Source of the DNA: Bacillota bacterium
GTDB taxonomy: Bacteria > Bacillota > Clostridia > Saccharofermentanales > UBA5734
Reading direction: 5' to 3'
Length of the DNA stretch: 49,614 bases
NCBI GenBank assembly: GCA_033549405.1
Contig: JAWSUP010000001.1
Coordinates: 1 to 49,614 of the forward strand
The notes under the pieces were generated by a model, which did no database searches, was not told where the DNA came from, and saw nothing but the letters and a program-made list of their open reading frames with translations. Shown one piece after another: positions 11,111 to 42,162 of this stretch. Each line of letters begins with the position of its first letter. Position 1 is the first letter of the stretch. Made by a program: the position numbers and the translations under genes.

Positions 11111-11186
11111 TGGTGCCCAGAGCCGGAATCGAACCAGCCACACGAGGATTTTCAGTCCACTGCTCTACCGACTGAGCTATCTGGGC
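11111..11186 (-). tRNA. tRNA-Phe (GAA), CCA encoded
   Basis: The reverse complement GCCCAGATAGCTCAGTCGGTAGAGCAGTGGACTGAAAATCC...GGTTCGATTCCGGCTCTGGGCACCA folds as a cloverleaf. The anticodon loop is CTGAAAA. Confidence 0.95.
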
Positions 11187-11190
11187 AATA

Positions 11191-11267
11191 TGGCGACGCA
11201 GAAGGGGCTCGAACCCTCGACCTCCAGCGTGACAGGCTGGCATTCTAACCAACTGAACTACTGCGCC
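11191..11267 (-). tRNA. tRNA-Asp (GUC), CCA encoded
   Basis: Reverse complement GGCGCAGTAGTTCAGTTGGTTAGAATGCCAGCCTGTCACGCTGG...GGTTCGAGCCCCTTCTGCGTCGCCA. Confidence 0.95.
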
Positions 11268-11276
11268 GTAATGATG

Positions 11277-11352
11277 TGGTGGGAACTACAGGGCTCGAAC
11301 CTGTGACCCTCTGCTTGTAAGGCAGATGCTCTCCCAGCTGAGCTAAGCTCCC
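11277..11352 (-). tRNA. tRNA-Val (UAC), CCA encoded
   Basis: Reverse complement GGGAGCTTAGCTCAGCTGGGAGAGCATCTGCCTTACAAGCAGAGG...GGTTCGAGCCCTGTAGTTCCCACCA. Confidence 0.95.
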
Positions 11353-21519: not shown

Positions 21520-22173
21520 TCAATAATCGAGTTTGATTGTGTGCAGTCCGGCTATTTCCAGCCAGATCTCTTTTTCGATACGGTCAATATCCTTGCGGAT
21601 ATCTTCATAGGTTTCTTCAGCCTGTATTCTTCGGTCCCAGCGTGAAGATCGATCACTGCCGGCTGTTTTTCGGTTTTGCCGCATCTGCTGATCCGCTCGC
21701 ACCGGCTTCTCCCTGGGGGGCTGGCTCTGTCTATTGACGTGCTGTGCAGTCTTTTCCACCGGGGCTGTTTCTGCACGTTCGGGTGCTCTGGCGGCTGCCA
21801 CCGTCGCATCTGACTGATTTCGGCTCTGCGGCCGGTTCTGGCTGCTGCGATTGCGCCGATTCTTATTGGATCGCGTATTGCTCCGATTGCCAGATGCCGC
21901 TGTTTTTTGTTGATTAGGATTGCTTTTCGCGCCAGCCTCTGCACTGCGCACACCGGTCTCCCGGTTTACCGGTTCACGATGCACACTTTGGTTCTCTTGT
22001 CTTTGTTCGACCGGGCCAGTGCGAACATTAGCCTGCTGCGCCGGTTTATTCACTTGATCACCAGATGCGCCGGCAGGTCCGAAATGGCGGTAGTTGCGCT
22101 TGCGGCGATTCGTTCCGCCTGATTTTCCGGAATCAGCATTCGCTGAATTTCCGATATTGCCCGTATTACTCAT
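21520..22173 (-). CDS. hypothetical low-complexity basic protein with short structured C-terminus
   Basis: About 190 aa rich in N/R/Q/S/P, ending in EETYEDIRKDIDRIEKEIWLEIAGLHTIKLDY. No recognisable domain. Confidence 0.45.
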   Translation of the reverse strand: MSNTGNIGNSANADSGKSGGTNRRKRNYRHFGPAGASGDQVNKPAQQANVRTGPVEQRQENQSVHREPVNRETGVRSAEAGAKSNPNQQKTAASGNRSNTRSNKNRRNRSSQNRPQSRNQSDATVAAARAPERAETAPVEKTAQHVNRQSQPPREKPVRADQQMRQNRKTAGSDRSSRWDRRIQAEETYEDIRKDIDRIEKEIWLEIAGLHTIKLDY

Positions 22174-24043: not shown

Positions 24044-24691
24044 TTATCGGCGCCTATTGATCAACGACATGGCCTCTGCCCGCGAACGGGCATCGCTTTT
24101 GCACAATCCGCGTAAAGCTGATGTGACCGTCAGTGAACCAGGTTTGCGGATCCCGCGCATGGTCATGCAAAGGTGCTCTGCTTCAACAATGACAGCCACA
24201 CCCATCGGTTTGACAGCTGCGACAAGCGTATCGGCAATCTGGGAGGTCAGCCTTTCCTGTAGCTGCGGCTTTCTGGACATAACGTCGACAATGCGGGCAA
24301 TTTTGCTCAGACCGACGATTCTGCCTTCACGAGGGATGTATACGACATGTGCCCGCCCGATAAATGGCAGCAGGTGATGCTCACACATGGAATAAAAAGG
24401 TATGTCGCCGACCATGATCATTTCGTCGTGATCCTTTTCATGAAAAACCTTGATCACGTCGTGCACATCGATGTGAAGCCCTGCAAACAGCTCTTCGTAC
24501 ATACGCGCCACACGTGCAGGCGTTTCCAGCAGACCTTCGCGGTCAGGGTTTTCGCCAATTGCATACAAGATCTCGCGAACAGCCCGTTCTATGCGGGGCA
24601 GATCGACAGCAGTCGGCTCATCATCAGGTTTGCCGCCGGTCTGAGCCAGTTCCTGGTCATCAGCCGACTGATTCAATTCAGTTGAATTCAC
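24044..24691 (-). CDS. folE: GTP cyclohydrolase I
   Basis: [12 protein letters not shown] and HLCMTMRG motifs. Confidence 0.92.
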
Positions 24692-25680
24692 CGTATATTC
24701 CCTTTCTTATCTGCCAGTATCTGGCGGCGGTACTGCATGGGTGTCATGCCAATGTGTTTTCTGAATGCTGCATTGAAACGCTGCGGACTGGAAAAACCAA
24801 CCTGGGTCGCAATGCCGCTGACCTTGATATCCTGCTGCTCCAGCAACTTGCAGGCATGATCGACACGGACCTGCATCAAAAAAGTCATCGGGTTCATACC
24901 GGTTTCATCCCGGAAAGCGCGGGCAAAATAACCCTGGCTGAGAAAAACATAACCGGCTACATCAGCGATCGACAAATCATGGTCGTGGTTTTCGACAATA
25001 TAGTCACGGGCGATCTTGACCAGTTCACGCGCCTTGCCGCTGCGTACCCGCAAGCTCTCTTCCCATTCTTCGCGCAGGCCGCGTGCCAGTACAACCAGAA
25101 GTTCCATCGCCAGAAGCTGCATCATCAGCTCGCGCCCATACGCTTCTTTGCGGTTCTCCCGCAGAATACGCTCGGTCAACGTCGCGATATCCTGGCGGCT
25201 TTTACCGCGCAGCAAAAGATACGGATCATCCACTTTGCCGGCTCTGCCAGAATCGCTGCCATAGGCAAAATTGATGAATTGTTCCAGCGTTTGTGGTGCA
25301 ATATCGGTCGTTTTCTGCATTTGAAAATCCGGCAACGAGGCGTCCCTGTCAGTTCCAGTCATGCCATGGTGAGCAAAACCGAAATACAAGACCATCATGT
25401 CGGCCGCGCCTTCAAGAATGCGGATACTGTGAGAGCTGCGCGGGCGGATTACAAGGGTCGCCCCTTTCTCGATCAGAACTCGGCGTCCTTCGATGAGAAA
25501 CTCAGCTTTCCCGTTGCGCATGTATGTCAGCTCGTGGTAATCGTGTCGGCTCGGATTCGTCATGGTCGCAGATCTTTCAAAGGAACGTTCAATCCCTTTA
25601 AAAACAACCGGTATGGAACCGGCTGCATCCATGATACCTCTTTCAACTGCTGGCAACAGATCTTCAAACATCAGCATCAC
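24688..25680 (-). CDS. AraC family transcriptional regulator (cupin sensor plus HTH_18)
   Basis: C-terminal [20 protein letters not shown]...GMTPMQYRR. The stop overlaps the folE ATG by 4 nt. Confidence 0.82.
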
Positions 25681-25773: not shown

Positions 25774-26415
25774 TCAGGGCAGCGGTGCACAAGAGTCACT
25801 GACAGCCGCTATTTTCAAGCTATACCAGGTCTCAGCAGCAGCCAGAAGGATCGCCTCTTCTGGTGACAGATCAAGGCAGATCAGCAGGTCGCTTCCCTGC
25901 GACTCATAACTAAAACCGGTTGATTCCGCCTGACCCATGATTTTCAGGATCCGGACACCGGCCAGCATCTGGATTTCCTGGTCTGTCGGGGAACTGGGCA
26001 CGAGATAAATGTCCACCAGAGAACCCTCTGCCAGCCAATAGCCATTCGCAGCGGCTGCGTCGAGCCTGATGGTCATGAGGCGTCGGCCGGGTTCTGTTCC
26101 CGGATAGAGCAAACCGGCAGACTGGCCGGTTATTCGATTGCCAAGCAGGATCTCTCCCTCCGAAAGATCTGTGGTGCAGATAAGGCCGATAGCCATTTGG
26201 GCATCGGTCACCCAGTCTGCCCGCACGAGCTTAGCCGGCACTTCAACGATGCCAAGATCAGATGAATCCAGCTGACTGCCGGCTTCGATCTCCCGCAACA
26301 CGACAACCACAGGGGTCGTCTGAATTTTATCTCGCGACCGCCCGGCATACCAGGCCAGACCGACCAGGACGACTGTCAGCACGATTGTCAATGTCACCTG
26401 CTTTGAGTGGCGCAT
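25774..26415 (-). CDS. cpaB: Flp pilus assembly protein CpaB/RcpC-like (TM anchor plus SAF domain)
   Basis: N-terminal TM, then VVVVLREIEAGSQLDSSDLGIVEVPAKLV (SAF-like). It is the last gene of the tad-like cluster. Confidence 0.62.
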   Translation of the reverse strand: MRHSKQVTLTIVLTVVLVGLAWYAGRSRDKIQTTPVVVVLREIEAGSQLDSSDLGIVEVPAKLVRADWVTDAQMAIGLICTTDLSEGEILLGNRITGQSAGLLYPGTEPGRRLMTIRLDAAAANGYWLAEGSLVDIYLVPSSPTDQEIQMLAGVRILKIMGQAESTGFSYESQGSDLLICLDLSPEEAILLAAAETWYSLKIAAVSDSCAPLP

Positions 26416-26564: not shown

Positions 26565-26592
26565 TTCGCGTGGTGGGAAAGTTGTATTCTTA
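26565..26592. repeat. 28-bp direct repeat, copy 2 (overlaps the stop codon of the TadE-like gene)
   Basis: Identical to 26427-26454. Confidence 0.9.
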
Positions 26593-27081
26593 GTCTATAA
26601 ATATTTCCAGTGAGTGGACAATCGGCACATCCTGTCCATCCTGTAGCGTCAAAACGGCTTCGATCACTACAATCGGCTGATTTTCAGGCTGACGGTCGCC
26701 CATCCAGTGGTCTGGATCATACGGCAGCAGCCGCGTCGTGAAGCGAATCTGCTGCAGTTCCAGGCAGTCTGCCAGAATGACAGGGCAATGATCCATGAAA
26801 TGTCTGGCCAGCATGGTCCGCGTTGAAATGGTCTGCATTTTTGCATGTCCGACAGACAAGTCGCCTAGATTCAGTCCGGTACAGGCTGCCGGTAAAACCT
26901 GCTGGACATATTGATGCGCGCGCCTGACCAAAAGCCATTCATAGATCCGTTCGATGCAGCCTGTGCCGATCGGTACGATAAGCAAAGCGGTGATCATGAA
27001 TATCACCAGTGCTGTAGCTATGGAACCGCGTCGAAAGCCTGCAGTATGCGGCAAACCATACTGGCTTCGTAGACGAAACAT
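26590..27081 (-). CDS. TadE/TadG-like pseudopilin-type membrane protein
   Basis: The N-terminus RRGSIATALVIFMITALLIVPIGTG resembles the TadE N-terminal motif. Supported by pilus-locus context. Confidence 0.5.
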   Translation of the reverse strand: MFRLRSQYGLPHTAGFRRGSIATALVIFMITALLIVPIGTGCIERIYEWLLVRRAHQYVQQVLPAACTGLNLGDLSVGHAKMQTISTRTMLARHFMDHCPVILADCLELQQIRFTTRLLPYDPDHWMGDRQPENQPIVVIEAVLTLQDGQDVPIVHSLEIFID

Positions 27082-27410
27082 GCGTTTACTTCCTCCATCT
27101 GCAGCGCCATTGTCAGGCGCATGTCAGTAAATGTCGCCTGAACAGTCATGGTCATGATGTCACCGTATGCGGCCTGCTCAGGCGCCTGTACGACCGTGAC
27201 GGTGAAGTGGCGGTCTTGCAGTGTCTGAACCAGGTTTGCGGCGGCTGTTCCGGTCAGTCCGCCGCTCTGGTCCATCAGGAGCGCATACTGGTGACAGACA
27301 GCGTCAAATTCAATCCGGCGAAACAGGGGCAGGCAGCACAAGAGCAGCTGCACGCTGATAGCTGTCATCAAGACCATGCCGATGACCATAACCAGTAATC
27401 TGTCGATCAT
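27018..27410 (-). CDS. pilus-locus membrane-anchored protein (DUF4320-like)
   Basis: An N-terminal TM followed by a small soluble domain, a pattern similar to DUF4320 proteins of Firmicutes Flp loci. By-eye call. Confidence 0.4.
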   Translation of the reverse strand: MIDRLLVMVIGMVLMTAISVQLLLCCLPLFRRIEFDAVCHQYALLMDQSGGLTGTAAANLVQTLQDRHFTVTVVQAPEQAAYGDIMTMTVQATFTDMRLTMALQMEEVNACFVYEASMVCRILQAFDAVP

Positions 27411-27518: not shown

Positions 27519-27746
27519 TTATCCGACAGTCGTCGCAAATATGGATGATGACATGCTGGTCCACCAGCTTTGCAGATTGCTGATCAGGCTCGATGCAAAG
27601 GTCTGCAGACCTGGAATGACGATAACCGCCGCGATGATGATACCTGCGGCGATGCCGATAACCTCATTCAGGCCAAATCCGCGCCGCCCGGCCAGTTGCT
27701 TCTCACCCTTGTTCTTTCGGACCTTTCTGTTGCTTGTTTTCTTCAT
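27519..27746 (-). CDS. Flp1-like / type IV-like pilin precursor
   Basis: MKKTSNRKVRKNKGEKQLAGRRG|FGLNEVIGIAAGIIIAAVIV: a basic leader, then Gly, a hydrophobic stretch and Glu at +5. Start set at MKK, preceded by GAGGAGG. Confidence 0.6.
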   Translation of the reverse strand: MKKTSNRKVRKNKGEKQLAGRRGFGLNEVIGIAAGIIIAAVIVIPGLQTFASSLISNLQSWWTSMSSSIFATTVG

Positions 27747-27792: not shown

Positions 27793-28641
27793 TCAGCCAA
27801 AGATCGATTGCAGAGCGCCTGCAGCGCTATGCAGCATCGGATATAAAAACAAAATCATGAGCGGGACCAGTCCGCCTGCCACAGTCAGTGTCAGGAAAGT
27901 GCGGATTCGCCGTGTTTCTTCCTGCATCAGGCCAAACGTGCGCGCAAACAGCAGCTCTTCCATACGAACCATGCTTTTTCCGGCCACACCCGACTGCAGA
28001 CACTGATGTACATGGACGGACAAAAGGTCGCAGTCCTGGCTGTGGAACAGCCGACGCAGGACATCAAATGCACGGTCACTGTCGAGCGTAACCTCGTAGA
28101 TGGCAGTAAACTGCACCAGAGCCGGGTAAACCACAGGATCACGAACCGCTGTGGAGAGCCCCCGCAAAGCATCGGTTGCGGCGACACCTGACGATATCTG
28201 TCCATCAAGAAAGCGGTAGATTTTATACAGACTGCGGACGAACGCCTTTTTGCGCTCACTGGCTCTGCGTCGCAGCATGCGGTTGACCAGAACCGCCAGT
28301 AACACGGACCCGGCGAGTGTCTGCAGATTCTGTGTGCCGCTAAGCAAGCCAAAGATGAGGATCAATCCCGGGATACCGCATTGAATCAGAAGATAGATTT
28401 TCAATGCCACAGTCCGTGTGAAGCCTGCCTGGTTCAACTGGCAGCGGCTTTTGTCGACCAGGACGGATAACACTTTGGCAAACCGGCTCTTCTTCCTATG
28501 CAATGGCAGATGCTGATGCCGGCTCAGCGCAGCCTGGGACAGCTGACGGTTTATCCGGCAAGCCAGTACCGGCAAGAGCAAATAGAGGCAGGCAGCTGCG
28601 ATGACGGTAACAGTCAAGATTGTCCAGATATGCATATGCAT
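27793..28641 (-). CDS. tadC: type II secretion system F family protein (TadC-like)
   Basis: TM-flanked T2SSF-type helical domain. Position follows TadB. Confidence 0.62.
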   Translation of the reverse strand: MHMHIWTILTVTVIAAACLYLLLPVLACRINRQLSQAALSRHQHLPLHRKKSRFAKVLSVLVDKSRCQLNQAGFTRTVALKIYLLIQCGIPGLILIFGLLSGTQNLQTLAGSVLLAVLVNRMLRRRASERKKAFVRSLYKIYRFLDGQISSGVAATDALRGLSTAVRDPVVYPALVQFTAIYEVTLDSDRAFDVLRRLFHSQDCDLLSVHVHQCLQSGVAGKSMVRMEELLFARTFGLMQEETRRIRTFLTLTVAGGLVPLMILFLYPMLHSAAGALQSIFG

Positions 28642-28657: not shown

Positions 28658-29236
28658 TTAATCGTTTATCTTCTTCTGGATCAGAATAAAGGTGACAACG
28701 GATAAAAGATAAATAACTGTTCCTGCACCTGCCAGTGCCAGACCAGGACCAGTTTGGACAAAGAGTCGACTGCCGGCTGGATTTCCCCACAAACGCAGTG
28801 CGCAACAGATCGGCACCGCGATCATAATGATCGCCGTAACTGTTCGGTCGTGCGCATTGGAAAGTTTGCGCCGGGTATATTCTTCCTCGATCCGGTTCAT
28901 CTGCCATTCGAGATGCTCCAGCAGAGATGGCAGGTCGCCCCGGTAATGCAGGTTGAAACGTATGGAGGCGACAAAATCCTGAAAATGTTCGTGCTCAAGG
29001 CTTTTCTGCATCAGATCCAGAGCCTGGTCTATGGCCATGCCGCCGCGCACGCGGGTCAGGAACGCCTCAATGACCGATCTGAGCGGTTGATCCAATCCAC
29101 CGTCTATACACTTTTGAAAAGCATAGAGCAGGTCTTCACGCACCTGGCACCAGCGGTTCATTGAACTGAGCAATTGCAGGGTCTGTTTGCGGATCTTGCC
29201 CGATCTGCCAAATGCACTCCAGATCATAATGTTCAT
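28658..29236 (-). CDS. tadB: type II secretion system F family protein (TadB-like)
   Basis: LLYAFQKCIDGGLDQPLRSVIEAFLTRVRGGMAIDQALDLM (T2SSF-like) plus C-terminal TMs. GGGAGGAAG precedes the ATG at 29236, which gives a 101-nt overlap with tadA. Confidence 0.55.
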   Translation of the reverse strand: MNIMIWSAFGRSGKIRKQTLQLLSSMNRWCQVREDLLYAFQKCIDGGLDQPLRSVIEAFLTRVRGGMAIDQALDLMQKSLEHEHFQDFVASIRFNLHYRGDLPSLLEHLEWQMNRIEEEYTRRKLSNAHDRTVTAIIMIAVPICCALRLWGNPAGSRLFVQTGPGLALAGAGTVIYLLSVVTFILIQKKIND

Positions 29237-30440
29237 CTTCCTCCCGATAGCCGTGCACGGCCAGGATCTCGCAGATCTTGAAATCGCGCAGGCAGATAAT
29301 CAGGTCCATGCAGCGGCCGATCATCCGCCGCAGCGTCTCATCCGCTTCGCCCCGCGATACCGGTCGGGCCAGGGCGAGCAGGCGGTCGGGAACATCAGCT
29401 GCCCGGTCTGCGTGGATTGTAGCCAGGCAACGATGTCCGGAGAAGGCCGCACTGATGAAGGCCATTGCTTCGTCACCGACGATTTCTCCAACGCAGTAAG
29501 TGTCCAGCGACATGGTCAGGCCGTCGCGCACCAGATCGAGCAGGCTGACCGGCCGGCCGCCCTCATAGGGTTTCTTGATGCGCTGCTGCAGACAGCAAGG
29601 CTTTTCAGGATACAGTTCACTATCGCTTTCAGCGATCAGGACGCGTTCGAGTTCGGGCAGCTCTTCGATGAAAGCGCGCAGTAAGGTCGTTTTGCCGGCC
29701 GCCCCCTTGCCGCAGAACAAAACAGTCCGGTCAGAAGCAGCCCAGTCCCGCAGCATGGCGGCAATCTTATGGTTCAACATGCCGACAGTGACCAGGTCAG
29801 CGAGGCGCAGTGATTTCCGACTGTGTTTCCGGATGCTGATCGCAGGATACCGGATGCTGCGTGGCGGTACAGTTACATTGATGCGCAGGCGATATTGATC
29901 ATCAGTGACACGGCAATGACTGTCATTTTCATTGATGACACCACCGTTTCTGATAATCAATAAACGGCAGAATGCGTCGTATGAGCGTTCATCGGGAAAC
30001 GCGAGTGACAGGGCACGCCTGGTTCCGCCGGTTTTGATCGTAAATGCAGTCGGTCCGATCCCGTCGATATCGGATATAGTCTCGTCTGCAACATAGGGCT
30101 GCAGGGGTCCATACCCGAATAAAAAGTCCATGACCTGCTGCTGCAGGTCCCTGCGGAAGAATCCGGCCCTGACACTGACCTGTTCAGCCGTCCGCGCGAT
30201 CAGGTCCAGCAAAACCTGCCTGGGAACCTGGCGGGCGGCAACCCCTGCTACAGTTGCCGCGTCTGTCTGCAGAATCTGGCTGCAAATTGTGGCTACCAGC
30301 TCCTGCAGATCCGGTGCAGCCGGTTCACTGTGCTCAGGGTTGTCATCGTCCTGGAGCAACAAGCCCAATGTCATCTGGTCCTCGAGCCTGTATTGCTTCA
30401 GCTTTTCAGATAACAAGGCGTGCGATTGAACAACTGGCAT
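29136..30440 (-). CDS. tadA: CpaF/TadA family type IV pilus/secretion ATPase
   Basis: Walker A FCGKGAAGKTTLL, Walker B/Asp box LIAESDSEL, and a His box region (CLATIHA). Confidence 0.88.
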   Translation of the reverse strand: MPVVQSHALLSEKLKQYRLEDQMTLGLLLQDDDNPEHSEPAAPDLQELVATICSQILQTDAATVAGVAARQVPRQVLLDLIARTAEQVSVRAGFFRRDLQQQVMDFLFGYGPLQPYVADETISDIDGIGPTAFTIKTGGTRRALSLAFPDERSYDAFCRLLIIRNGGVINENDSHCRVTDDQYRLRINVTVPPRSIRYPAISIRKHSRKSLRLADLVTVGMLNHKIAAMLRDWAASDRTVLFCGKGAAGKTTLLRAFIEELPELERVLIAESDSELYPEKPCCLQQRIKKPYEGGRPVSLLDLVRDGLTMSLDTYCVGEIVGDEAMAFISAAFSGHRCLATIHADRAADVPDRLLALARPVSRGEADETLRRMIGRCMDLIICLRDFKICEILAVHGYREEDEHYDLECIWQIGQDPQTDPAIAQFNEPLVPGA

Positions 30441-30441
30441 G

Positions 30442-32094
30442 TCAATCTCCTTTTCTCTCCTGACGCAACAAGTCGAACTGCGCGATCAGTGATCTGTACT
30501 CCTTTTTATTGGCATCACTCAGGCAGGCAGCGTATGGAACAGCGCCACAGCCGCGCAAACGCCTTTGCCGCTGTTCAGAAATTACACCTGCCAGGCGTCC
30601 GTCACTGAGTTCATTCATGGTTCCCCTGCTGAGATCGGTCTGCTTGTTGTAGGGAAAGGCAACAAAAGCGAGCCGGTTCTGCTCCAGATAATTCCTGGCA
30701 GATAAAAACTCCAGAGATCGTTTGACTTCGCGAAATGAGCCGACATCTCCCGCCAGCGGGATGACGACTTTGTCAGCGGCCAACAGGCACAGACAGGTGA
30801 ATGCGTCAAATACACTGCGGGTACAGAGCACAATGACCAGATCGGCAATCAACCGCGCCCATTTGAGCGTTTGATGAAGTGAGTCCAGATGACAATATTC
30901 ATAGTCATCCAGCTGATTCGTGCAATCAAGCAGCCTGACCCGGGAAACGCTGGTGTCTCTGGCCAGTGTCGTGAGCAGCTGTGGTGTTAAGCGCCCCTGC
31001 TGTTCTGCCTGCATGGCCAGATCGAGACCGTTCAGCCGAATTTTTGACTGATCACGATAAAACCGATGGGGATGACCCAGCAGCAAGTCAGCCCGCGGGT
31101 TCAAGAGATTGGCGTCGATGACCAGAACCGAGTGTCGTTCAGCCAGAACCGCTGCCAGCTCGCAGCCGCAGGCTGCGCCATCCCAGACACAGAGCAACGG
31201 CGCCGGCAAACGCTCTTCGCGGACTTGTCCGTCTGCAGCACCTTTTGCACTGATCTGCACCCCTGACTGTCCGTCTTGCTGCACCCCTTTGTCGTCTATT
31301 TTCAGGTCGCACGCGTTATCAGTCTGTTCGATTTTCAACTGATCGTAAATCATTTTCAGATCACTGATCAGCGCGTCTGCCTGGTTGTAGCGCATGGCCG
31401 GATCTGAGTGCAGGCATTTGCCGATCAAGGTCTGCAGTGCTGCAGGTTGGCCCGAAACACTGGCGCTAAGCGGTTTGTCACGGCACTCTTCAGGCTTTTT
31501 GCCGGTCAACAGCACCAGCATGACCAGTCCCAGCGCAAACAGGTCGCTGCCAGGGCAAGGTGTTCCTGCCACCAGTTCCGGTGCGGCATAATTCATCGTC
31601 ATTGCCTGTTTACCTTTGAGCGGACCGGAGCATTCCCGGCCGTCCAGGAGACGGGCCGCGCCAAAATCGATCAGGCCGACATCACTTTGCCGGTCAACAA
31701 TCAGGTTGGCAGGTTTGATGTCCAGATGGACCAGGGGGAATTCCCTCTGCAAGTGGAGATACGACAGCATTTGCGACCATTGGATCATCCAGGGCAGCCA
31801 TACGCCGGGGTCGATGCCACCTGGATTATGGTTGATCGTATCTGTCAGCGGCACCCCATTAATGTATTCAAAAATACAATACGCCGTGCCATCCTCGTCA
31901 ACGGTCTGTCCCAGGCAGCGGGGTATGCCGGCATGCCAGACATCAGCCAACTGCTCCGGAACAGCCGGATCGACAAACGACACAATCGGCTTATGTACAT
32001 ACCGCATGCCGTCCTGGATATCCCGGACCAGACAGCCGCTGCACAACCGCGTTTCAAGTTCATATCTTGTCCGATCGATGGTTGCCAAAGCCAT
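30442..32094 (-). CDS. fusion protein: N-terminal Ser/Thr protein kinase-like domain plus C-terminal TadZ/CpaE (ParA/MinD-fold) domain lacking Walker A
   Basis: Kinase motifs HLDIKPANLIV, IDFGAA, YAAPELV and SDLFALGLVM. The C-terminal half reads LLCVWDGAACGCELAAVLA...VLVIDANLLNP...DLVIVLCTR...ADKVVIPL, which is ParA-like but has DGAACGCE where KGGxGK[ST] would be. Start set at MALATI (ATG 32092-32094, AGGAG 8 nt upstream). Upstream of that, the ORF track's TTG-initiated extension runs through a terminator hairpin. Confidence 0.7.
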   Translation of the reverse strand: MALATIDRTRYELETRLCSGCLVRDIQDGMRYVHKPIVSFVDPAVPEQLADVWHAGIPRCLGQTVDEDGTAYCIFEYINGVPLTDTINHNPGGIDPGVWLPWMIQWSQMLSYLHLQREFPLVHLDIKPANLIVDRQSDVGLIDFGAARLLDGRECSGPLKGKQAMTMNYAAPELVAGTPCPGSDLFALGLVMLVLLTGKKPEECRDKPLSASVSGQPAALQTLIGKCLHSDPAMRYNQADALISDLKMIYDQLKIEQTDNACDLKIDDKGVQQDGQSGVQISAKGAADGQVREERLPAPLLCVWDGAACGCELAAVLAERHSVLVIDANLLNPRADLLLGHPHRFYRDQSKIRLNGLDLAMQAEQQGRLTPQLLTTLARDTSVSRVRLLDCTNQLDDYEYCHLDSLHQTLKWARLIADLVIVLCTRSVFDAFTCLCLLAADKVVIPLAGDVGSFREVKRSLEFLSARNYLEQNRLAFVAFPYNKQTDLSRGTMNELSDGRLAGVISEQRQRRLRGCGAVPYAACLSDANKKEYRSLIAQFDLLRQERKGD

Positions 32095-32139: not shown

Positions 32140-32168
32140 CGAAAAAGAGCACCCCTGTGGGTGCTCTT
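32140..32168 (-). terminator. rho-independent terminator of clpX
   Basis: Minus strand: AGAGCACCC-ACAG-GGGTGCTCT followed by TTTTTCGTT. A second hairpin, CAGGAC-N6-GTCCTG, lies at 32191-32208. Confidence 0.75.
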
Positions 32169-32220
32169 CATGCGACAAAAGGCGACAAAACAGGACGTAA
32201 AGGTCCTGCCAGTCAATTGA

Positions 32221-35938: not shown

Positions 35939-36763
35939 ATGTCTGACTTGTTTTGGGTCTTGTATCGAACCATCGTAGCGGGCTTGTTCGGGCTCCTGAT
36001 CGGCAGTTTTCTCAACGTCTGCATCTATCGCCTGCCGCGCGGTGAAACAATCGCCAAAGGCCGCTCCTACTGTCCGCGCTGCCGTCATGAGCTGGCCGGC
36101 GCCGACCTGGTGCCGGTTTTCAGTTATCTCTTGCTGCATAAGCGCTGTCGCTACTGCAGTCAGCCTATTGCGCCACGATACGCACGCATTGAGTCCGTGA
36201 CCGGGATCTATTTCGCTCTGGCCGTCTGGCTCTGGGGCAACGGGCCGTTGTCACCGGCACAGGACGGACGCCCCGGGCTGTTTCTTGACTGGCCGGATCC
36301 TGTTTATAATGCAGCGGTGCTCTTTTGCATCTTACTCGCCTTCTGTGCGCTGCTGGTCTGGGCCATGATCCTTTTTGACCGGCAAATACCGCCGCGGGCA
36401 ATCTACTGGTTCATTGCGCTACCGGTCCTGGCCAGGCTCGCGCTGCAGCCGGATCGCCTGCTCCTGCATCTGGCAGCCGCCCTGTTCGCTGTGGCTTTCT
36501 GGTGGCTGATCCACATCCTGAACCTGATCCGCGAAGAAGACCGGCTCCGACGAAACCACATCACAGCAGGCTTTCTGTTGCTCGGGCTTATAACCGGCCT
36601 TTTTGTCATCCAGCCGGTCATGGCGATACTCCTGACCATGACGCTTCTCCAGATTCTCTGGCTCGATAAAAAGCAAGGCCGGTCAGAACAACTTCGATCA
36701 CTGATCAACGCGCTGCAACCGGTTGCAGTTCTGGTCGGGTTTGTATTTATGCTGTTCGGCTGA
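35939..36763 (+). CDS. A24-family prepilin peptidase-like membrane protein
   Basis: N-terminal LIGSFLNVCIYRLP and CPRC...CRYC zinc motif (DiS-P-DiS domain). A candidate first Asp lies in FDRQIPP. The canonical GxGD[VI]KL box is not recognisable. Confidence 0.68.
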   Translation: MSDLFWVLYRTIVAGLFGLLIGSFLNVCIYRLPRGETIAKGRSYCPRCRHELAGADLVPVFSYLLLHKRCRYCSQPIAPRYARIESVTGIYFALAVWLWGNGPLSPAQDGRPGLFLDWPDPVYNAAVLFCILLAFCALLVWAMILFDRQIPPRAIYWFIALPVLARLALQPDRLLLHLAAALFAVAFWWLIHILNLIREEDRLRRNHITAGFLLLGLITGLFVIQPVMAILLTMTLLQILWLDKKQGRSEQLRSLINALQPVAVLVGFVFMLFG

Positions 36764-36857: not shown

Positions 36858-38135
36858 ATGCCTGCCATGATCAAACCCAGCAATGAGAACTACCGCCGAT
36901 CGGTCATCCTTTATATGGTTGTCCTTGCCCTTGCTGCTCTAGGTGCGGGATTGTCCGATACAGTTCTGTCCAACTATTTCAAAGACGCCTACCAGGTCAC
37001 AGCGCTCCAGCGCGGCCTGATCGAGATCCCGCGCGAAATACCAGGATTTATCGGTGTCTTTATTGTCTCGTGGCTGGCATTTCTCGGCGATCTGCGCATT
37101 GCCATCCTGGCCCAGACGCTCATGGTGATCGGGCTTTTATTGCTCGGTTTGCTGACGCCGGCATTTTCTGTCATGCTCGTCTTCATCTTCATCCATTCGC
37201 TGGGCGGCCACCTCTGGTACCCGCTGCAGGATACACTCGGCCTGCACATGATCCGGGACAACGGCACGGCCGGCAAGCTGATCGGACGTTTCAAAGGAAT
37301 CAGCACAGCCTTCGGCATGGTGGCCGGCATTATCGTCTATATCGGTTTTCGCAGCAACATTTTTAGTTTTACAACCCCGGTCAAGACAATCTTCATCATC
37401 GCCATGGTGCTGTTCTCAGCCGTCCTGTTTTTTCTGTTTCTGCTCAAACGGCAAATGCCTGATGAACGGGCCGCCAATGCTGAAGGAGAACCGCTCAGTC
37501 GGCGATTCGGCATGAAAAGCCGGCGGATCCGGCTGGTCTTTCACCGGGAATACCGTTTTTATTACGCCCTGGCAGTCGTTTTCGGCGTGCAAAAGCAGAT
37601 CATGTTTGTCTTCGCTCCCTGGGTCCTGATCGATCTGCTCAACAAAAAGGCCGACACCCTGGCCTTGCTGACCATCGCCGGCTCATTTATCGGCATCTTT
37701 TTCATCCCGGCACTCGGTCGCTGGGTTGACCGCTTCGGTATCAAGAAAATGCTATACGTCGACGCGTTCTCGTTCATTATGGTCTATATCCTCTATGGTC
37801 TGGTCAGTGCCGGCTTTCATACCGGCTTTCTGGCGAAAACCGGCTTGCCGGTCATCCTGGCATTCATCCTCTTCGTCATCGACCGCATGTCCATGCAGAT
37901 GGGGCTGATTCGGTCGCTCTACCTGCGCAACATCGCCATCCGGCCTGAAGACATCGCGCCGACACTGACCCTCGGCCAGAGCATGGACCATGTCGTCTCC
38001 ATCACCTGCGCCGCCCTGGGCGGACTGGTCTGGAGCATCTGGGGACCGCAATACGTCTTTTTCCTGGCTGCAATGCTCTCCGTGATCAACTACATCGTCG
38101 CCCGCATGGCGGTCATTCGCGAAACGCCGGCCTGA
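36858..38135 (+). CDS. MFS transporter
   Basis: About 12 TM helices in a two-halves arrangement with a basic central loop. Confidence 0.75.
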   Translation: MPAMIKPSNENYRRSVILYMVVLALAALGAGLSDTVLSNYFKDAYQVTALQRGLIEIPREIPGFIGVFIVSWLAFLGDLRIAILAQTLMVIGLLLLGLLTPAFSVMLVFIFIHSLGGHLWYPLQDTLGLHMIRDNGTAGKLIGRFKGISTAFGMVAGIIVYIGFRSNIFSFTTPVKTIFIIAMVLFSAVLFFLFLLKRQMPDERAANAEGEPLSRRFGMKSRRIRLVFHREYRFYYALAVVFGVQKQIMFVFAPWVLIDLLNKKADTLALLTIAGSFIGIFFIPALGRWVDRFGIKKMLYVDAFSFIMVYILYGLVSAGFHTGFLAKTGLPVILAFILFVIDRMSMQMGLIRSLYLRNIAIRPEDIAPTLTLGQSMDHVVSITCAALGGLVWSIWGPQYVFFLAAMLSVINYIVARMAVIRETPA

Positions 38136-38138
38136 TTT

Positions 38139-38475
38139 GTGAAACTTATTGAGCAGGCTACTTTATGACAACAACCAACGTCAGCGATGTGCCATCTTCA
38201 GGCTTTGCTCTTGTAACTAATCTCAGAAAACAGCTTGAGCTTCTCAACATCTATACTTTTACCGATGATGAATGGAATCAATTTTAAAATTAACGAATCG
38301 CCAGCAGCAATGAAGGCTTAGTTGAGAAAACGCGTAAAATTCAGACTGATCATGTGCAGATCTTGCGGCGTGATGATGACTCAACCAAAAACATCTATCT
38401 AATTGATAAGAAGAACATTCATAACAACCGGCTTCAAGTCATCAACCAATACGAAGAAGCTGGCGGCTCACATGA
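38139..38475 (+). pseudogene. hsdR: type I (IC, EcoR124I-like) restriction enzyme HsdR N-terminal fragment
   Basis: [94 protein letters not shown] is collinear with EcoR124I HsdR residues about 70-160 (ANVREQLQNLNGVVFNDSEWRRF...DKTRKIHIDY...[28 protein letters not shown]). There are two in-frame TAA codons (38285, 38291), an upstream frameshift, and truncation at both ends. Confidence 0.75.
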
Positions 38476-38540
38476 TACACCCTGTCTATACTCTTGCATT
38501 GCTTGCAACTTTTAATAGCCACATAATGGTAGACTTATAC

Positions 38541-39437
38541 TCAAGTCCAAATAGTTTCATAGATATCTGCATAATCATCAACATCTATCACTTCAAATCC
38601 AACCCTCTCAAGAAAAAACTTTTTACCTTGGTCTATTTCATTATTGCTTCGAGTATTTATATACCAGCCTTTATGTTTTCTGTCCGGAAACCTTCTGAAA
38701 TATTTAATCCTTTCAATGAGAATCCACCTTAAAAATGTTTCGTTCTCTTCAAGACCTAATCCAAAAACAAATAGAGATTTATTAAAGATAGTATGCAACC
38801 AGGTTTTGTAACCTTTCCAATTTGATTTGTCTTTTCCCGAAAAAAGTATTTCTTCACTTCCTTTGTGTATTAAATTTCTTGCTCTTTCAACACTGCCCAT
38901 ATAATCGCTTAATCCTAAACGAATACTCCTATGATAGTTTATCATTCCATTTATATACCAGATTCCGAACCCATCTGTGGGCATTTTAAGTTGTTTTATT
39001 CCATGATATGTGCTCCATGGATAAAAATCTGTAAAACCTTCTTGTTCGATCCTAAATTGTTGAAAATCAAATACTCGGGCAAGTGACTCCTCGTAATTCG
39101 TGGTTAGTATTGGACAATCTAGATCTTTTATACGGTTTATGATTTTTGAATGATGAGATAGGGGGTCCCATTCTCCCATTAAGTTTGATATTTCTTTTTT
39201 TAGATTTATTCCTTGTTCATTTTCAAGTTCTAGGATATCAAAAAACTCAGTGGTTGAAATTCCTTTGGGTCTTACTGTAAGTGTTTGAAACGATACCCTT
39301 TCCCATAATTGTATTAATAAATCATCCCATGAAAGTACATTTGGATTATTTGGATACCTATTAATTCCATTACCAATTATAAAAGCGATATCATTTTTGT
39401 TGCGCTCTATAATTCTTCTTATCTCATTAGTTGTCAT
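38541..39437 (-). CDS. short SIR2_2-like (ThsA-type SIR2 fold) protein
   Basis: Motif order matches the SIR2_2 domain of ThsA: FIIGNGINRY (GxG loop), ILTTNYEESLARVF (TTNYD-like), IWYINGM...LGLSDY (at the position of xxHG...DY), and LFVFGLGLEENETFLRWIL (FVGFSFTDPN-like). Start set at MTTNEI, preceded by GAGGAG. Confidence 0.68.
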   Translation of the reverse strand: MTTNEIRRIIERNKNDIAFIIGNGINRYPNNPNVLSWDDLLIQLWERVSFQTLTVRPKGISTTEFFDILELENEQGINLKKEISNLMGEWDPLSHHSKIINRIKDLDCPILTTNYEESLARVFDFQQFRIEQEGFTDFYPWSTYHGIKQLKMPTDGFGIWYINGMINYHRSIRLGLSDYMGSVERARNLIHKGSEEILFSGKDKSNWKGYKTWLHTIFNKSLFVFGLGLEENETFLRWILIERIKYFRRFPDRKHKGWYINTRSNNEIDQGKKFFLERVGFEVIDVDDYADIYETIWT

Positions 39438-39554
39438 CTTAACACTCCTCACACTTCAATTTTTGTTTATAACTCCACTGGATCACTATTTAAGATTGAG
39501 ACACAACTAAGCTTATTCGTAGCCGCTAAGAAAATACGACAGATCAACTAATTA

Positions 39555-40064
39555 TTATTGATACAATGCAATTATTTCCAATTGATATACGGGCTTGTCG
39601 TGGATTGATGCAATTGCACTCGCCTCGAAATCAAATATGTTTCCATCGGCAAAACTACTCATTGCCTCTATGAAATCTTTTTTGGCTCTAGGATCTTTAA
39701 TTTTTGTAAAAATGGTATTTTTCATCAATTCTGTACCTTCGGGGTAAATGCGCTTAACCTGAGCTAAGCAATTAAGTTGTGTTCCGATAATATCAGCCCT
39801 AGACGCTTGATATAGATTTGCATCTACTATATTGCTAATGACAGCATATCCTTTTGTCTCATACAGTATTTCCTCCCCATTGAAAATCACAGATGGATTG
39901 CCTGTCTGTTTACCGGTAAAAGCTTCGGTGTATTTCTTTTCTACCAGATCCCAGGGGATGATCTGAGTCATTTTGACCCAGCGGTTACCCTGAAATATCC
40001 GAGCGCCATGGAAACCACTTGGCCAGTCATGGAACGTAAGCTGTTTGGTGCGTTTCTTGATCAT
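39555..40064 (-). CDS. chimeric ORF: IS transposase N-terminal fragment fused in frame to the AT-rich unknown partner ORF of the SIR2 gene
   Basis: Residues 1-57 (QLTFHDW...NRWVKMTQIIPWDLVEKKYTEAFTGKQTGNP) match the DUF772-type N-terminus of IS5/IS1182-family transposases. From about 39893 downward the composition switches to AT-rich and the sequence has no recognisable motif. Confidence 0.5.
   Translation of the reverse strand: MIKKRTKQLTFHDWPSGFHGARIFQGNRWVKMTQIIPWDLVEKKYTEAFTGKQTGNPSVIFNGEEILYETKGYAVISNIVDANLYQASRADIIGTQLNCLAQVKRIYPEGTELMKNTIFTKIKDPRAKKDFIEAMSSFADGNIFDFEASAIASIHDKPVYQLEIIALYQ
39894..40064 (-). mobile_element. IS5/IS1182-family transposase gene fragment (first ~57 codons only)
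   Basis: Same evidence as the chimeric ORF. The catalytic DDE part is absent. Confidence 0.6.
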
Positions 40065-40255
40065 GATAGCTCTCCAAGTGCAAGGATTTTGGCCGTATTC
40101 TGATGCTTTTTATGCATTTCATTATACTATATTTTAGCCAAAATCGCCTGTTGCCAGACCTTGCCGGCTGCGGCAGCAGCCCCTAAATATCATCAAAAAA
40201 GAAATTCTTCTTAGTCAATTGAAAATATTTCTCTCCTTGGGTTTAAAAATCACTC

Positions 40256-40280
40256 AAAAATGTCACGGTATATGAGAGAT
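40256..40280 (+). repeat. direct repeat R1 (AAAAATGTCACGGTATATGAGAGA)
   Basis: Shares AAAATGTCAsGGyTATrwGAGRG with R2 and R3. Confidence 0.8.
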
Positions 40281-40376
40281 AGTTTTCCTCTCGTTGAAAT
40301 AGACAACCAAAATCAAGAACGCAAGAACGTTTGTTTATTTTGACGATTTTTGAAAATGACCCCCTACAAATGGCCA

Positions 40377-40401
40377 AAAAATGTCAGGGCTTATGAGAGG
40401 T
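40377..40401 (+). repeat. direct repeat R2 (AAAAATGTCAGGGCTTATGAGAGG)
   Basis: Degenerate copy of R1/R3. Confidence 0.7.
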
Positions 40402-40432
40402 AATTTTTCAGAGGGCATTAACTATTGACCTG

Positions 40433-40457
40433 AAAATGTCACGGTATATAAGAGGAA
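40433..40457 (+). repeat. direct repeat R3 (AAAATGTCACGGTATATAAGAGGA), preceded by TTGACC
   Basis: Nearly identical to R1. TTGACC plus a 16-17 nt spacer plus TATAAG/ATAAGA could form a promoter for the xis-like gene. Confidence 0.75.
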
Positions 40458-40515
40458 CTTTATTTCTCACACCACACCTTGAAAACCAAATAGAGAAAAA
40501 GGAGAAAGCAAAACG

Positions 40516-40734
40516 ATGACTACATCCGAAAACACACCTAAGAAGAATGACACCTACCGCGTGGATCATCCCAGATTCATGAGCGCTGATGAGATCGCCC
40601 AGACCTGTGGCATCTCTCGCTCCAACGCCTACCGACTGATCCGCAAGCTCAACCTTCAGCTTGAGCAGAAGAACAAAATCACAGTCGCCGGTAAAATCAG
40701 CCGCTGCTACTTCGAAGAAATGGCGGAGCTTTGA
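40516..40734 (+). CDS. xis: excisionase-family / MerR-AlpA-like HTH DNA-binding protein
   Basis: MSADEIAQTCGISRSNAYRLIRKLN...ITVAGKISRCYFEE is the typical pattern for the small HTH gene preceding tyrosine integrases of Firmicutes integrative elements. GGAGAAAG RBS. Confidence 0.68.
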   Translation: MTTSENTPKKNDTYRVDHPRFMSADEIAQTCGISRSNAYRLIRKLNLQLEQKNKITVAGKISRCYFEEMAEL

Positions 40735-40805
40735 TTGATGAACAAACAGCCGGAGACAATCATCACGATAACACTAGATTACAGTAAACAGAAAGGACTT
40801 AGCTG

Positions 40806-41044
40806 ATGCCGGTATATAAGAACGAAGAAAAGGGCACTGGTTTTGTGCTTTCTATTACACCGACTGGATGGGCAATCACAAGAAGATGAAAAAGGAAGGA
40901 TTCAGGACGCTGCGTGAGGCGAAAGCCTATGAGCGCTATTTCCTTGAGAAGGCAGCTGCCCGGCCTAACATGAGCTTCAGTACACTGGTCGCGATCTATA
41001 TGGAGGACTGCAAGACCCGGCTCAAGCAGACGACTGGTGTATGA
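40806..41044 (+). pseudogene. int: tyrosine integrase (Tn916/phage-type) N-terminal remnant, frameshifted and truncated
   Basis: MPVYKNEEKG, then a 1-nt frame slip near 40836, then WFCAFYYTDWMGNHKKMKKEGFRTLREAKAYERYFLEKAAARPNMSFSTLVAIYMEDCKTRLKQTT. This is the arm-binding/SAM-like N-terminus. The catalytic domain is absent. Confidence 0.7.
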
Positions 41045-41263
41045 TAACCTTAGTAATATTCGATACAAGAAATTCGGAATGTGACATCAATGTGAGTAGT
41101 GGCTGTACGCAACTGGTTAATAAGCATTATAGAAAATAAAAATATACCAACCAAGAATTGAGATGGCTGAGGCATTGTCGTCCGCTACTCTATGTGTTTC
41201 AACTTGTGGGTATTGCTCTGGTCATACAGTATTTATGAAATACCAATCTTATTTTTCATTCAA

Positions 41264-41533
41264 TCACTCAAATAAATCACTATGCGTTCCTGTGCGCTCA
41301 AACACAATAATGCCATTTCCAACTTGATAAATCAGTAACCAGTCTGGTTTTATATGGCACTCACGACAACCCTCAAATCCTCCGGACAAGGCATGGTCTT
41401 TATGCTTAGCATCCAAGGGATGTTCATTTATCAGGTTACGGATTATAGCGTCAATCAACGAAATGTTATAATTCCGCTTGGCAGCCAGTTTGTAATCCTT
41501 CTTAAATCTGCCTGTATAGTCAGGAGTCAGCAT
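41264..41533 (-). CDS. yafQ: type II toxin-antitoxin toxin, YafQ/RelE family mRNA interferase
   Basis: TGRFKKDYKLAAKRN...HPLDAKHKDHALSG...RECHIKPDWLLIY...FERTGTHSDLF. Confidence 0.87.
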   Translation of the reverse strand: MLTPDYTGRFKKDYKLAAKRNYNISLIDAIIRNLINEHPLDAKHKDHALSGGFEGCRECHIKPDWLLIYQVGNGIIVFERTGTHSDLFE

Positions 41534-41805
41534 CAGCGTTTCAATTCCTTTAACATATCGTTGGCGCCGCTAAACCGAACTTTACCGGACTTGATGATTT
41601 CGTCACCTTCTTTTATTGCTTCCAGCGTTTCAGCGTTAGGCGCAGGGGGACGCAAATCAAATGGAAGTCCGCCAACAATCCTTGATGTGTAAAGGAACAC
41701 ATTGATCGCATCGGTAATACTCATGCCGTATCGAGAATAAATTGTTTCAACTTCTGCTTTTACTTGCGGATCGATACGAATATACATGCTTGCACTTTTA
41801 GCCAC
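41533..41805 (-). CDS. dinJ: type II antitoxin, RelB/DinJ family
   Basis: IRIDPQVKAEVETIYSRYGMSITDAINVFL...GGLPFDL. A GTG start at 41805 is preceded by AGAGGTGA. The stop overlaps the yafQ ATG. Confidence 0.85.
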   Translation of the reverse strand: MAKSASMYIRIDPQVKAEVETIYSRYGMSITDAINVFLYTSRIVGGLPFDLRPPAPNAETLEAIKEGDEIIKSGKVRFSGANDMLKELKR

Positions 41806-41913
41806 TCTAATCACCTCTTTCAGGACACATTTGATCATATCACATATTATGTACAAATGCAATACATTGTGATCTAAATATGCTCTTATCACGGAAAGAG
41901 AAAAAGAGCCTGA

Positions 41914-42162
41914 TCATTTCTTCTCTTTACGCTCGAAAAACGACAAGATCAGCGACAAAGCGCAAAGACCTATGGCGAGGTAGATCCAGGGACGGTTTGA
42001 CGTCAATGGACAAGTGCCTGCCGGCGCCCTGTTGAAAATATACATATCAGCCAAAAGATAGATGACAATGGCCAGCGACAAACCGAGCAGGACATTGCCA
42101 ATGATCTTCAGTGCTTTTTGGTCGCCTGCGCCACTTACCGGTTTTTTTATATAGCGGTTCAT
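41914..42162 (-). CDS. small two-TM membrane protein, unknown function
   Basis: Two hydrophobic helices. Overlaps the fucosidase stop by 4 nt. Confidence 0.45.
   Translation of the reverse strand: MNRYIKKPVSGAGDQKALKIIGNVLLGLSLAIVIYLLADMYIFNRAPAGTCPLTSNRPWIYLAIGLCALSLILSFFERKEKK

Follow-up and report, generated by a model that had tools for sequence, protein, structure and literature searches.

The window analysed here, a stretch of 49,614 nucleotides of contig JAWSUP010000001.1 (positions 1 to 49,614; assembly GCA_033549405.1) from a Bacillota bacterium, carries a Tad (type IVc) pilus locus whose first gene, on the minus strand, encodes a two-domain fusion protein. The N-terminal half of this protein is predicted to be a Hanks-type Ser/Thr-kinase domain, and the C-terminal half is predicted to have the fold of the MinD/ParA ATPases without their Walker A and Walker B motifs. 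The position and architecture of the protein suggest a role comparable to that of TadZ/CpaE, the hub protein of Tad machines. The gene, its parts and its borders are as follows.

30442-32094, minus strand: fusion gene (kinase, linker and P-loop-less MinD-like domain), 550 amino acids plus stop, from the list of open reading frames (ORFs) and the translation.
31309-32094, minus strand: Hanks-type protein-kinase domain, residues 1-262, with a complete C-lobe and the Gly-rich loop deleted in the N-lobe (Pfam, Foldseek, family alignments).
31660-31728, minus strand: catalytic loop HLDIKPAN (H123, D125, K127, N130) through DFG (D143-G145), from the translation and the homologue alignment.
31210-31308, minus strand: interdomain linker, disordered and Asp/Gln/Gly-rich, residues 263-295 (about 30 residues), from the translation and the model.
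30445-31209, minus strand: MinD/ParA-fold domain without Walker A and Walker B, residues 296-550 (model, Foldseek, family profile).
31159-31185, minus strand: P-loop remnant WDGAACGCE, W304-E312, from the translation and the alignment to the relative P0235.
32144-32169, minus strand: intrinsic terminator after clpX, an 11-pair stem followed by a T-run.
29136-30440, minus strand: cpaF/tadA, the pilus motor ATPase gene (Pfam T2SSE 4.6e-22; NCBIfam TadA-family 3e-37).

The reading frame of the fusion gene opens with the ATG at 32094, which is preceded by GGAG 8 nucleotides upstream, and closes with the stop codon at 30442-30444. A longer form with a TTG start at 32178 was considered and rejected; this codon lies inside the clpX terminator hairpin, and the homologues begin MALA(T/I)ID. 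The terminator, which separates the fusion gene from clpX, delimits the tad operon on its upstream side. At the other end, the ATG of cpaF lies 1 nucleotide past the fusion-gene stop, and the cpaF Shine-Dalgarno sequence (AAAGGAG) lies within the last codons of the fusion gene. The fusion gene is translationally coupled to cpaF, and its place at the head of the pilus locus, as proposed in the initial annotation, is borne out at both borders. The GenBank counterpart (MDW7655573.1, also P0001) is identical and is labelled "MAG: protein kinase [Bacillota bacterium]", MAG standing for metagenome-assembled genome. An AlphaFold2 model of the full-length protein, computed with 47 homologues as input, has a mean predicted local distance difference test (pLDDT) score of 86 and is confident except in the linker, where pLDDT falls below 50 over residues 268-295 and where both length and sequence differ among the homologues. 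On re-translation, all of the kinase motifs, the Gln/Asp/Gly-rich linker and the WDGAACGCE segment (304-312) that had been quoted previously were present.

The kinase half is recognized both by profile and by fold. Pfam PF00069 (Pkinase) matches residues 63-241 with 82.1 bits (cutoff 31.7; E=5.7e-23), the alignment being confined to positions 65-257 of the hidden Markov model (HMM), so that the N-lobe is unrecognized by the profile. In the AlphaFold2 model, pLDDT exceeds 90 for residues 1-150, and the top Foldseek match in the PDB is the catalytic domain of PknB (1o6y; E=1.2e-14; target template-modelling score, TMt, 0.72), which aligns over about 280 columns covering both lobes. The motifs were located at YVHK (K35), HLDIKPANLIV (123-133), DFG (143-145), APE (171-173) and DLFALG. 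Among the 47 full-length homologues, which share 30-78% identity, H123, D125, K127, D143, F144, A171-P172-E173, D184 and R235 are invariant. By these measures the N-terminal half belongs to the Hanks kinase superfamily, as first read, but lacks one defining motif, the Gly-rich loop. This loop had been described as degenerate; in the clade of the window protein (hereafter the window clade) it is in fact deleted, since the window sequence RLCSGCL is 5-6 residues shorter than LGQGGMGTVYLA of the sister clade and contains no GxGxxG, and in the model a two-residue β1-β2 turn stands in its place. The Arg of HRD is replaced by Leu (HLD), which makes the protein a non-RD kinase. Within the window clade, the β3 residue is Lys or Arg (K35 in the window protein), the αC Glu is not conserved (E47 of the window protein sits in the predicted αC helix), the catalytic-loop Asn (N130) is Asn or His, and the Gly of DFG is variable. 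Compared with the PknB-type kinases, the window protein shares the bilobal fold, HxDxKxxN, DFG, APE, the Asp of subdomain IX and the Arg of subdomain XI, but differs in its deleted Gly-rich loop, its non-RD catalytic loop and the αC Glu that is unconserved in its clade; it also has neither a transmembrane helix nor a PASTA sensor, being soluble and fused to a MinD-like domain. Judged from these residues, the kinase of the window clade may be weakly active or a pseudokinase.

The C-terminal half was more difficult to assign. Neither Pfam nor NCBIfam gave a match for residues 296-550 of the window protein, and Foldseek with the full-length model returned kinases only; the fold of the C-domain was found from a separate model of this domain (pLDDT 88; predicted TM-score 0.88). 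With this model, Foldseek matched MinD, ParA, McdA, Soj, FlhG, FleN and BcsQ with E down to 3e-10 and TM-scores of 0.7-0.79, individual matches being 6riq_C (E=3.2e-10) and 1g3q (TMt 0.79), as well as 3ea0 and 4v02. In sequence searches against the PDB, the profile of close homologues (A2) stayed below threshold, with a best E of 0.019, yet all 14 of its matches were MinD/ParA-type; the diverse family profile (A4) reached MinD 4v03 at E=2.2e-7 and ParA 3ea0 at E=8e-5. Sequence homology to MinD is hence significant only with the more diverse of the two profiles. The ParA/MinD layout proposed at the outset agrees with both the structural and the profile matches. With respect to domain architecture, the expected PF00069 was found and no CpaE/ParA model matched the window protein alone; Pfam AAA_31 is matched by 17 of 62 relatives, at best with E=3.7e-7.

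The absence of Walker A, which had also been noted at the outset, extends throughout the family and is accompanied by the loss of Walker B. In the alignment to P0235, GKS is paired with GCE, so that the Walker A Lys corresponds to Cys311 and the Ser/Thr to Glu312, and the position of the Walker B Asp is taken by Cys424 (VIVLC versus (I/V)xxD in MinD) and by Asn in the wider family. The consensus of the loop in about 70 species is W-[DG]-[GN]-[AP]-x-[FC]-G-C-E, with Lys in none. The length of the remnant is kept, W304, G310, C311 and E312 are strongly conserved, and a switch-I-like segment VLVIDAD/N is retained with an invariant D327. The relative P0235 (275 amino acids) retains Walker A as WGTNGAGKS and matches the C-domain profile (2.4e-20), MinD (1.7e-13), BcsQ (6e-9) and CpaE/Ssd (8e-8), and it forms a bridging sequence; on its 1.4-kb contig, the partial downstream ORF has no similarity to CpaF. 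A six-frame motif scan of the 49.6-kb window found no other ParA/MinD Walker A motif of the KGGxGK[ST] type. Compared with the SIMIBI ATPases (MinD, ParA, FlhG, FleN, BcsQ), the C-domain shares the fold, a colinear secondary structure, the VLVIDAD segment and homology at the family level, but has neither the signature Lys nor the Walker A Lys nor the Walker B Asp. By predicted fold and remote homology, this half is a MinD/ParA-type pseudo-ATPase from which both defining Walker motifs are absent. Since both motifs are missing, ATP-dependent sandwich dimerization by the C-domain appears unlikely.

Two other interpretations of the C-domain need to be considered here. The first is that it is a P-loop tyrosine kinase of the bacterial BY-kinase type (Wzc/CapB), which would make the protein a dual kinase. 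The profiles do match Etk, Wzc and CapB weakly (E=0.019 to 1e-4), and NCBIfam tyrosine-autokinase models match some of the relatives; however, BY-kinases cannot do without Walker A and Walker B, both of which are missing here, there is no C-terminal Tyr cluster, and MinD/ParA structures match better. The missing Walker A Lys argues strongly against this interpretation, which is regarded as scarcely credible and was rejected. The second is that the former nucleotide pocket has been re-purposed as a sensor for another ligand, a metal or a redox signal, in the window clade through Cys311, Glu312 and Cys424, coupling pilus assembly to that signal. The preserved length of the loop and its conserved residues, including Glu312, which is at least 90% conserved family-wide, the retained switch-I-like segment with D327, and the two conserved Cys residues, which from the alignment would flank the site of Mg and γ-phosphate in MinD, are all consistent with such a role. 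On the other hand, the Cys residues are not conserved family-wide (ACE, ASE, AAE and AYE occur at Walker A, and Asn at Walker B), and no ligand was predicted by the tools used in the analysis. A sensor function of this kind is considered improbable.

The distribution of the family shows that the fusion is a recurrent arrangement. When 1.84 billion representative proteins were searched by HMMER for matches to the C-domain profile, 335 clusters (50% identity) were obtained at E<=1e-3 and 182 at E<=1e-10; the GTDB species genomes yielded 75 loci. The hosts of these loci are nearly all Clostridia MAGs (Saccharofermentans, Mageeibacillus, Oscillospiraceae-labelled, Hungateiclostridiaceae and Acetivibrionales); the one isolate among them is Lutispora thermophila DSM 19022, and cluster look-ups for the kinase forms gave no cultured host. 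Nearly all family members come from uncultured organisms. The fusion occurs as a single ORF in independent assemblies, comprising 54 full-length clusters of the window type, more than 100 clusters of the canonical type and about 60 GTDB species. In all loci with enough downstream DNA (about 68 genomes), cpaF, tadB and tadC directly follow the C-domain gene, and the usual order after tadC is a Flp-like pilin (46 loci), a 130-amino-acid gene, cpaB and an AraC-family regulator (39 loci). The survey of the fusion and of its adjacency to cpaF, which had been suggested in the initial annotation, accordingly revealed a widespread association. The tad operon of the window clade is found downstream of tig-clpP-clpX. 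In the canonical-kinase clade (loci L028-L056), the operon comes just after the late flagellar genes flaG, fliD, fliS and flgN, which are about 2-8 kb ahead of the kinase gene. Another side observation concerns locus L017 (JAQVSS010000246.1), a contig of a Kiritimatiellae MAG whose proteins are 46-84% identical to those of the window tad operon and the AraC regulator; the contig probably stems from Clostridia and was binned wrongly.

These data bear directly on the possibility that the fusion, or its association with the pilus, is incidental, that is, that it reflects an assembly or frameshift error or a generic kinase that happens to lie beside tad genes. An error of this kind would be compatible with the origin of the window in a metagenome-assembled genome and with the low complexity of the linker. 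However, the same single ORF recurs in the independent assemblies, cpaF adjoins the gene in every locus with downstream DNA, and the kinase and C-domain are colinear in the alignment across clades. The concern that two genes had been joined by error at the linker was not borne out, the assembly-artefact explanation is ruled out by the recurrence, and an incidental association as a whole is extremely improbable. As for the view that the architecture is undescribed, literature searches yielded no account of a kinase fused to TadZ, nor of a TadZ lineage without a P-loop; the architecture is not a one-off, however, since it occurs in hundreds of clusters that carry only generic database labels ('protein kinase', 'kinase/BcsQ').

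Another finding is that the common P-loop-less C-domain stands behind three different N-termini: a receiver-like domain, a canonical kinase and, in the window clade, a degenerate kinase. The receiver-like domains are about 140-230 amino acids long (for example in L060, L061, L062, L066 and the Lutispora locus L065), and their profile (A5) matches the response-regulator receiver 3a0u at E=1.2e-5, with a further, weak match to the CpaE2 N-domain 4myr at E=0.39; a phmmer search of the PDB with one receiver-type relative produced no meaningful match. These forms have the classical TadZ/CpaE layout, with the P-loop already absent. The canonical-kinase forms (more than 100 clusters) carry LGxGGMGxVYLA, WAIKE, the αC Glu, YRDxKPSN, DFG and GTRGYAAPE. 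In the window-clade kinases, the N-lobe is degenerate and HxDxKP, DF and APE are kept. The proposal that a receiver had been replaced by a kinase is directly supported by the receiver-like domain found at the same position in the non-kinase relatives. The window kinase domain scores a median of 86 bits against the canonical-fusion kinases versus 69 bits against the best generic kinases in the database, consistent with one fusion event and subsequent degeneration. In a rough neighbour-joining tree of the C-domains, the degenerate forms fall in one large clade and the canonical-kinase and receiver forms are intermixed; because of this intermixing, the domain exchange probably happened more than once. 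The tree suggests about 10 gains or losses of the kinase, a number that is not relied on because some of them are probably truncated gene calls. It was also observed that 90% of the canonical-kinase relatives and 71% of the receiver-like relatives end in a basic, amphipathic tail of about 25 amino acids resembling the membrane-targeting helix of MinD/CpaE (examples among loci L028-L072 are L050 9842-11584, L051 and L037, L060 9560-10882, and L065 204-1694). This tail is absent from the window protein and from most of its clade.

For the interpretation of these results, the known Tad systems provide the closest reference. TadZ/CpaE proteins are MinD-like, have an atypical Walker A, bind ATP, hydrolyse it poorly and act as a hub for Tad components (PMC6668835; PMC11407121). 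In Caulobacter, six ATP-dependent CpaE dimers have been fitted in situ as a ring around the CpaF hexamer, with the C-terminal amphipathic helix on the membrane and the REC (receiver) domains bridging neighbouring dimers (PMC13170226). The window protein resembles TadZ/CpaE (3FKQ; C. crescentus CpaE) in that its gene lies immediately upstream of cpaF/tadA, in its two-domain layout with a C-terminal MinD-type domain, in the receiver-like N-domain carried by its relatives, as in TadZ, and in the basic amphipathic tail of most relatives, which is not shared by the window protein itself. It differs in that its N-domain is a Hanks kinase rather than an atypical receiver (ARD/REC), in that Walker A and Walker B are gone, which leaves no ATP site by motif, and in that no TadZ/CpaE sequence model matches it and 3FKQ ranks only in the middle of its structural matches. 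The C-domain resembles MinD in a generic way; the designation TadZ-like is therefore founded on gene position and architecture and not on sequence membership, and the fusion protein is a TadZ-position analogue and a probable divergent homologue rather than a member of the TadZ family. A precedent for a kinase fold in an envelope machine of Firmicutes is the pseudokinase EssB, a structural part of the type VIIb secretion system (T7SSb) machine (PMC11217815). Like EssB and other pseudokinases of secretion machines, the window protein would place a kinase-fold domain, presumed structural or regulatory, in a Firmicutes envelope nanomachine; EssB differs in being membrane-anchored and in having lost its catalytic residues, while the window protein has an intact C-lobe catalytic set and a MinD-like partner domain.

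Based on the results presented above and on the analogy with Caulobacter, we favour, with confidence that is about evenly balanced, the reading that the fusion protein is a nucleotide-independent ring or hub protein in the TadZ/CpaE position of a monoderm Tad (type IVc) pilus, in which the receiver has been swapped for a Hanks kinase domain that serves mainly in oligomerization or regulation, with weak or atypical phosphotransfer. In this proposal, the ancestral receiver-like N-domain would have been replaced by the kinase domain, and the MinD-type domain would have lost its P-loop and Walker B. The MinD-like domain would then act as an ATP-independent docking module that, in the manner of Caulobacter CpaE, encircles the CpaF hexamer as a ring, and the kinase domain would sit where REC domains connect one CpaE dimer to the next. 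In the sister clade, with its canonical motifs, the kinase is probably an active enzyme resident on the motor. In the window clade, it would tune the recruitment or activity of CpaF rather than act as a classical signalling kinase, weak or atypical catalysis being suggested by the missing Gly-rich loop, and access of the window protein to the membrane may depend wholly on CpaF and TadBC. The link to phosphorylation that had been put forward at the outset is less certain in the window clade than in the sister clade because the Gly-rich loop is deleted, the β3 residue is Lys or Arg and the αC Glu is not conserved. A more speculative and rather doubtful extension of this analogy is that Clostridia have turned the TadZ/CpaE ring into a Ser/Thr-kinase platform resident on the machine. 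In this view, six or twelve kinase domains would be held around the CpaF hexamer by the ATP-independent pseudo-MinD domain, and pilus extension and retraction would be gated by phosphorylation in the canonical forms or by phosphorylation-like conformational switching in the degenerate window clade, whose protein is possibly a double pseudoenzyme.

Several observations weigh against the favoured ring or hub reading. No TadZ/CpaE-specific model (TadZ_N, CpaE, Ssd; Pfam and NCBIfam) matches the window protein at E<=0.1, and the TadZ structure of E. rectale, 3fkq, is only the 48th Foldseek match of the C-domain (E=1.1e-6; query TM-score, TMq, 0.59). All of the C-lobe catalytic residues are invariant down to 30% identity, which argues against a pure scaffold and for retained catalysis, and K35 together with E47 in the predicted αC helix could form the Lys-Glu pair in the window protein. 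The ring formation and the contact with CpaF are carried over by analogy from Caulobacter, and membrane association is not accounted for in a clade that has no C-terminal amphipathic tail. A further point of this kind is that the neighbours of 25 canonical-kinase loci included no conserved PP2C phosphatase or FHA partner; the survey did not extend to the window clade, and only selected window ORFs were scanned for domains. This null result neither supports nor excludes phospho-signalling.

A rival explanation is that the kinase is fully active in the window clade too, that the MinD-like domain only targets it to the Tad motor, and that it phosphorylates CpaF, TadB/C, the pilin or itself, switching assembly, extension or retraction. 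The C-lobe set that is invariant in the 47 homologues, the K35, N130 and complete DFG of the window protein, the textbook active-site set of the sister clade and the translational coupling to cpaF are all in keeping with an active enzyme. However, the Gly-rich loop is reduced by about 5-6 residues to the two-residue turn seen in the model, the β3 position alternates between Lys and Arg, the αC Glu is unconserved, the catalytic loop has Asn or His and the Gly of DFG varies in the clade; moreover, the Pfam alignment leaves the N-lobe unrecognized, and the lack of a phosphatase or FHA partner among conserved neighbours of the 25 canonical-kinase loci, a survey outside the window clade, also stands against full activity. 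Full activity in the window clade is thus considered a possible explanation and a rather doubtful one.

In Tad pili, the single ATPase CpaF drives both extension and retraction. The series of receiver, intact kinase and degenerate kinase on one module supports the idea that a large lineage can dispense with the ATPase chemistry of TadZ, that the ring carries its regulatory module as an exchangeable outer domain, and that Ser/Thr phosphorylation may be wired directly into the pilus motor in abundant Clostridia of anaerobic digesters and the gut. CpaE/TadZ has only recently been placed as a ring around the motor (PMC13170226). The family also offers a clean case of stepwise pseudoenzyme evolution within one protein, first of the ATPase and then possibly of the kinase. 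If the more speculative extension is true, a kinase platform on the Tad motor would represent a control principle that has not been described for any type IV filament system.

The remaining genes of the tad locus follow cpaF on the same strand, and a prepilin-peptidase-like gene lies on the opposite strand.

28658-29236, minus strand: tadB-like platform protein (Pfam T2SSF 1.5e-5; syntenic in the surveyed loci).
27793-28641, minus strand: tadC-like platform protein, from its position and conservation after tadB in about 55 loci; no Pfam match.
27519-27746, minus strand: Flp-like pilin candidate (MKKTSN...RRG/FGLNEVIGIAAGIIIAAVIV...), a small ORF with no Pfam match, conserved in 46 loci in the interval from tadC to the gene that follows.
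27018-27410, minus strand: 130-amino-acid gene with an N-terminal hydrophobic segment in the usual tadE/pseudopilin position (about 45 loci); no Pfam match, and the putative function comes from the position.
26590-27081, minus strand: conserved 163-amino-acid operon gene, no Pfam match, syntenic in the window clade.
25774-26415, minus strand: cpaB/rcpC (NCBIfam TIGR03177 5.8e-21; Pfam SAF plus RcpC).
24688-25680, minus strand: AraC-family regulator (cupin plus HTH_18, Pfam), directly after cpaB at the end of the locus.
35939-36763, plus strand: prepilin-peptidase-like gene upstream of tig (Pfam A24_N_bact 1.4e-31), position kept in the window clade.

As listed, the ORFs of cpaF and tadB overlap by about 100 nucleotides (29136-29236), and the true start of tadB may lie further downstream. 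The window TadB is short, with 192 amino acids and one T2SSF domain; in the canonical-kinase clade, the tadB match begins about 450 nucleotides after cpaF. The Flp-like pilin candidate has Glu at +5 and Val, not Tyr, at +6, counted after the putative Gly cleavage site. An orthologue of the AraC-family regulator occurs at the same place in the 39 loci, which come from both kinase clades; the identity to that of L044, for example, is 35% (E=8e-67). The protein is probably the transcriptional regulator of the window tad operon. In the prepilin-peptidase-like gene, Pfam recognizes only the A24 N-terminal domain and not the catalytic A24 domain.

Elsewhere in the window, the region 38000-42000 forms a low-GC island, with a guanine-plus-cytosine (GC) fraction of 0.35-0.43 versus about 0.54 elsewhere; it may be horizontally acquired DNA, and its ORFs at 38541-39452 and 39555-40064, both on the minus strand, have no Pfam match. 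At 21520-22173 on the minus strand, an ORF of 217 amino acids, extremely basic, of low complexity and rich in Asn, Arg, Gln and Ser, is situated amid housekeeping genes. Finally, a tRNA cluster, Phe(GAA)-Asp(GTC)-Val(TAC), occupies 11111-11352 on the minus strand.

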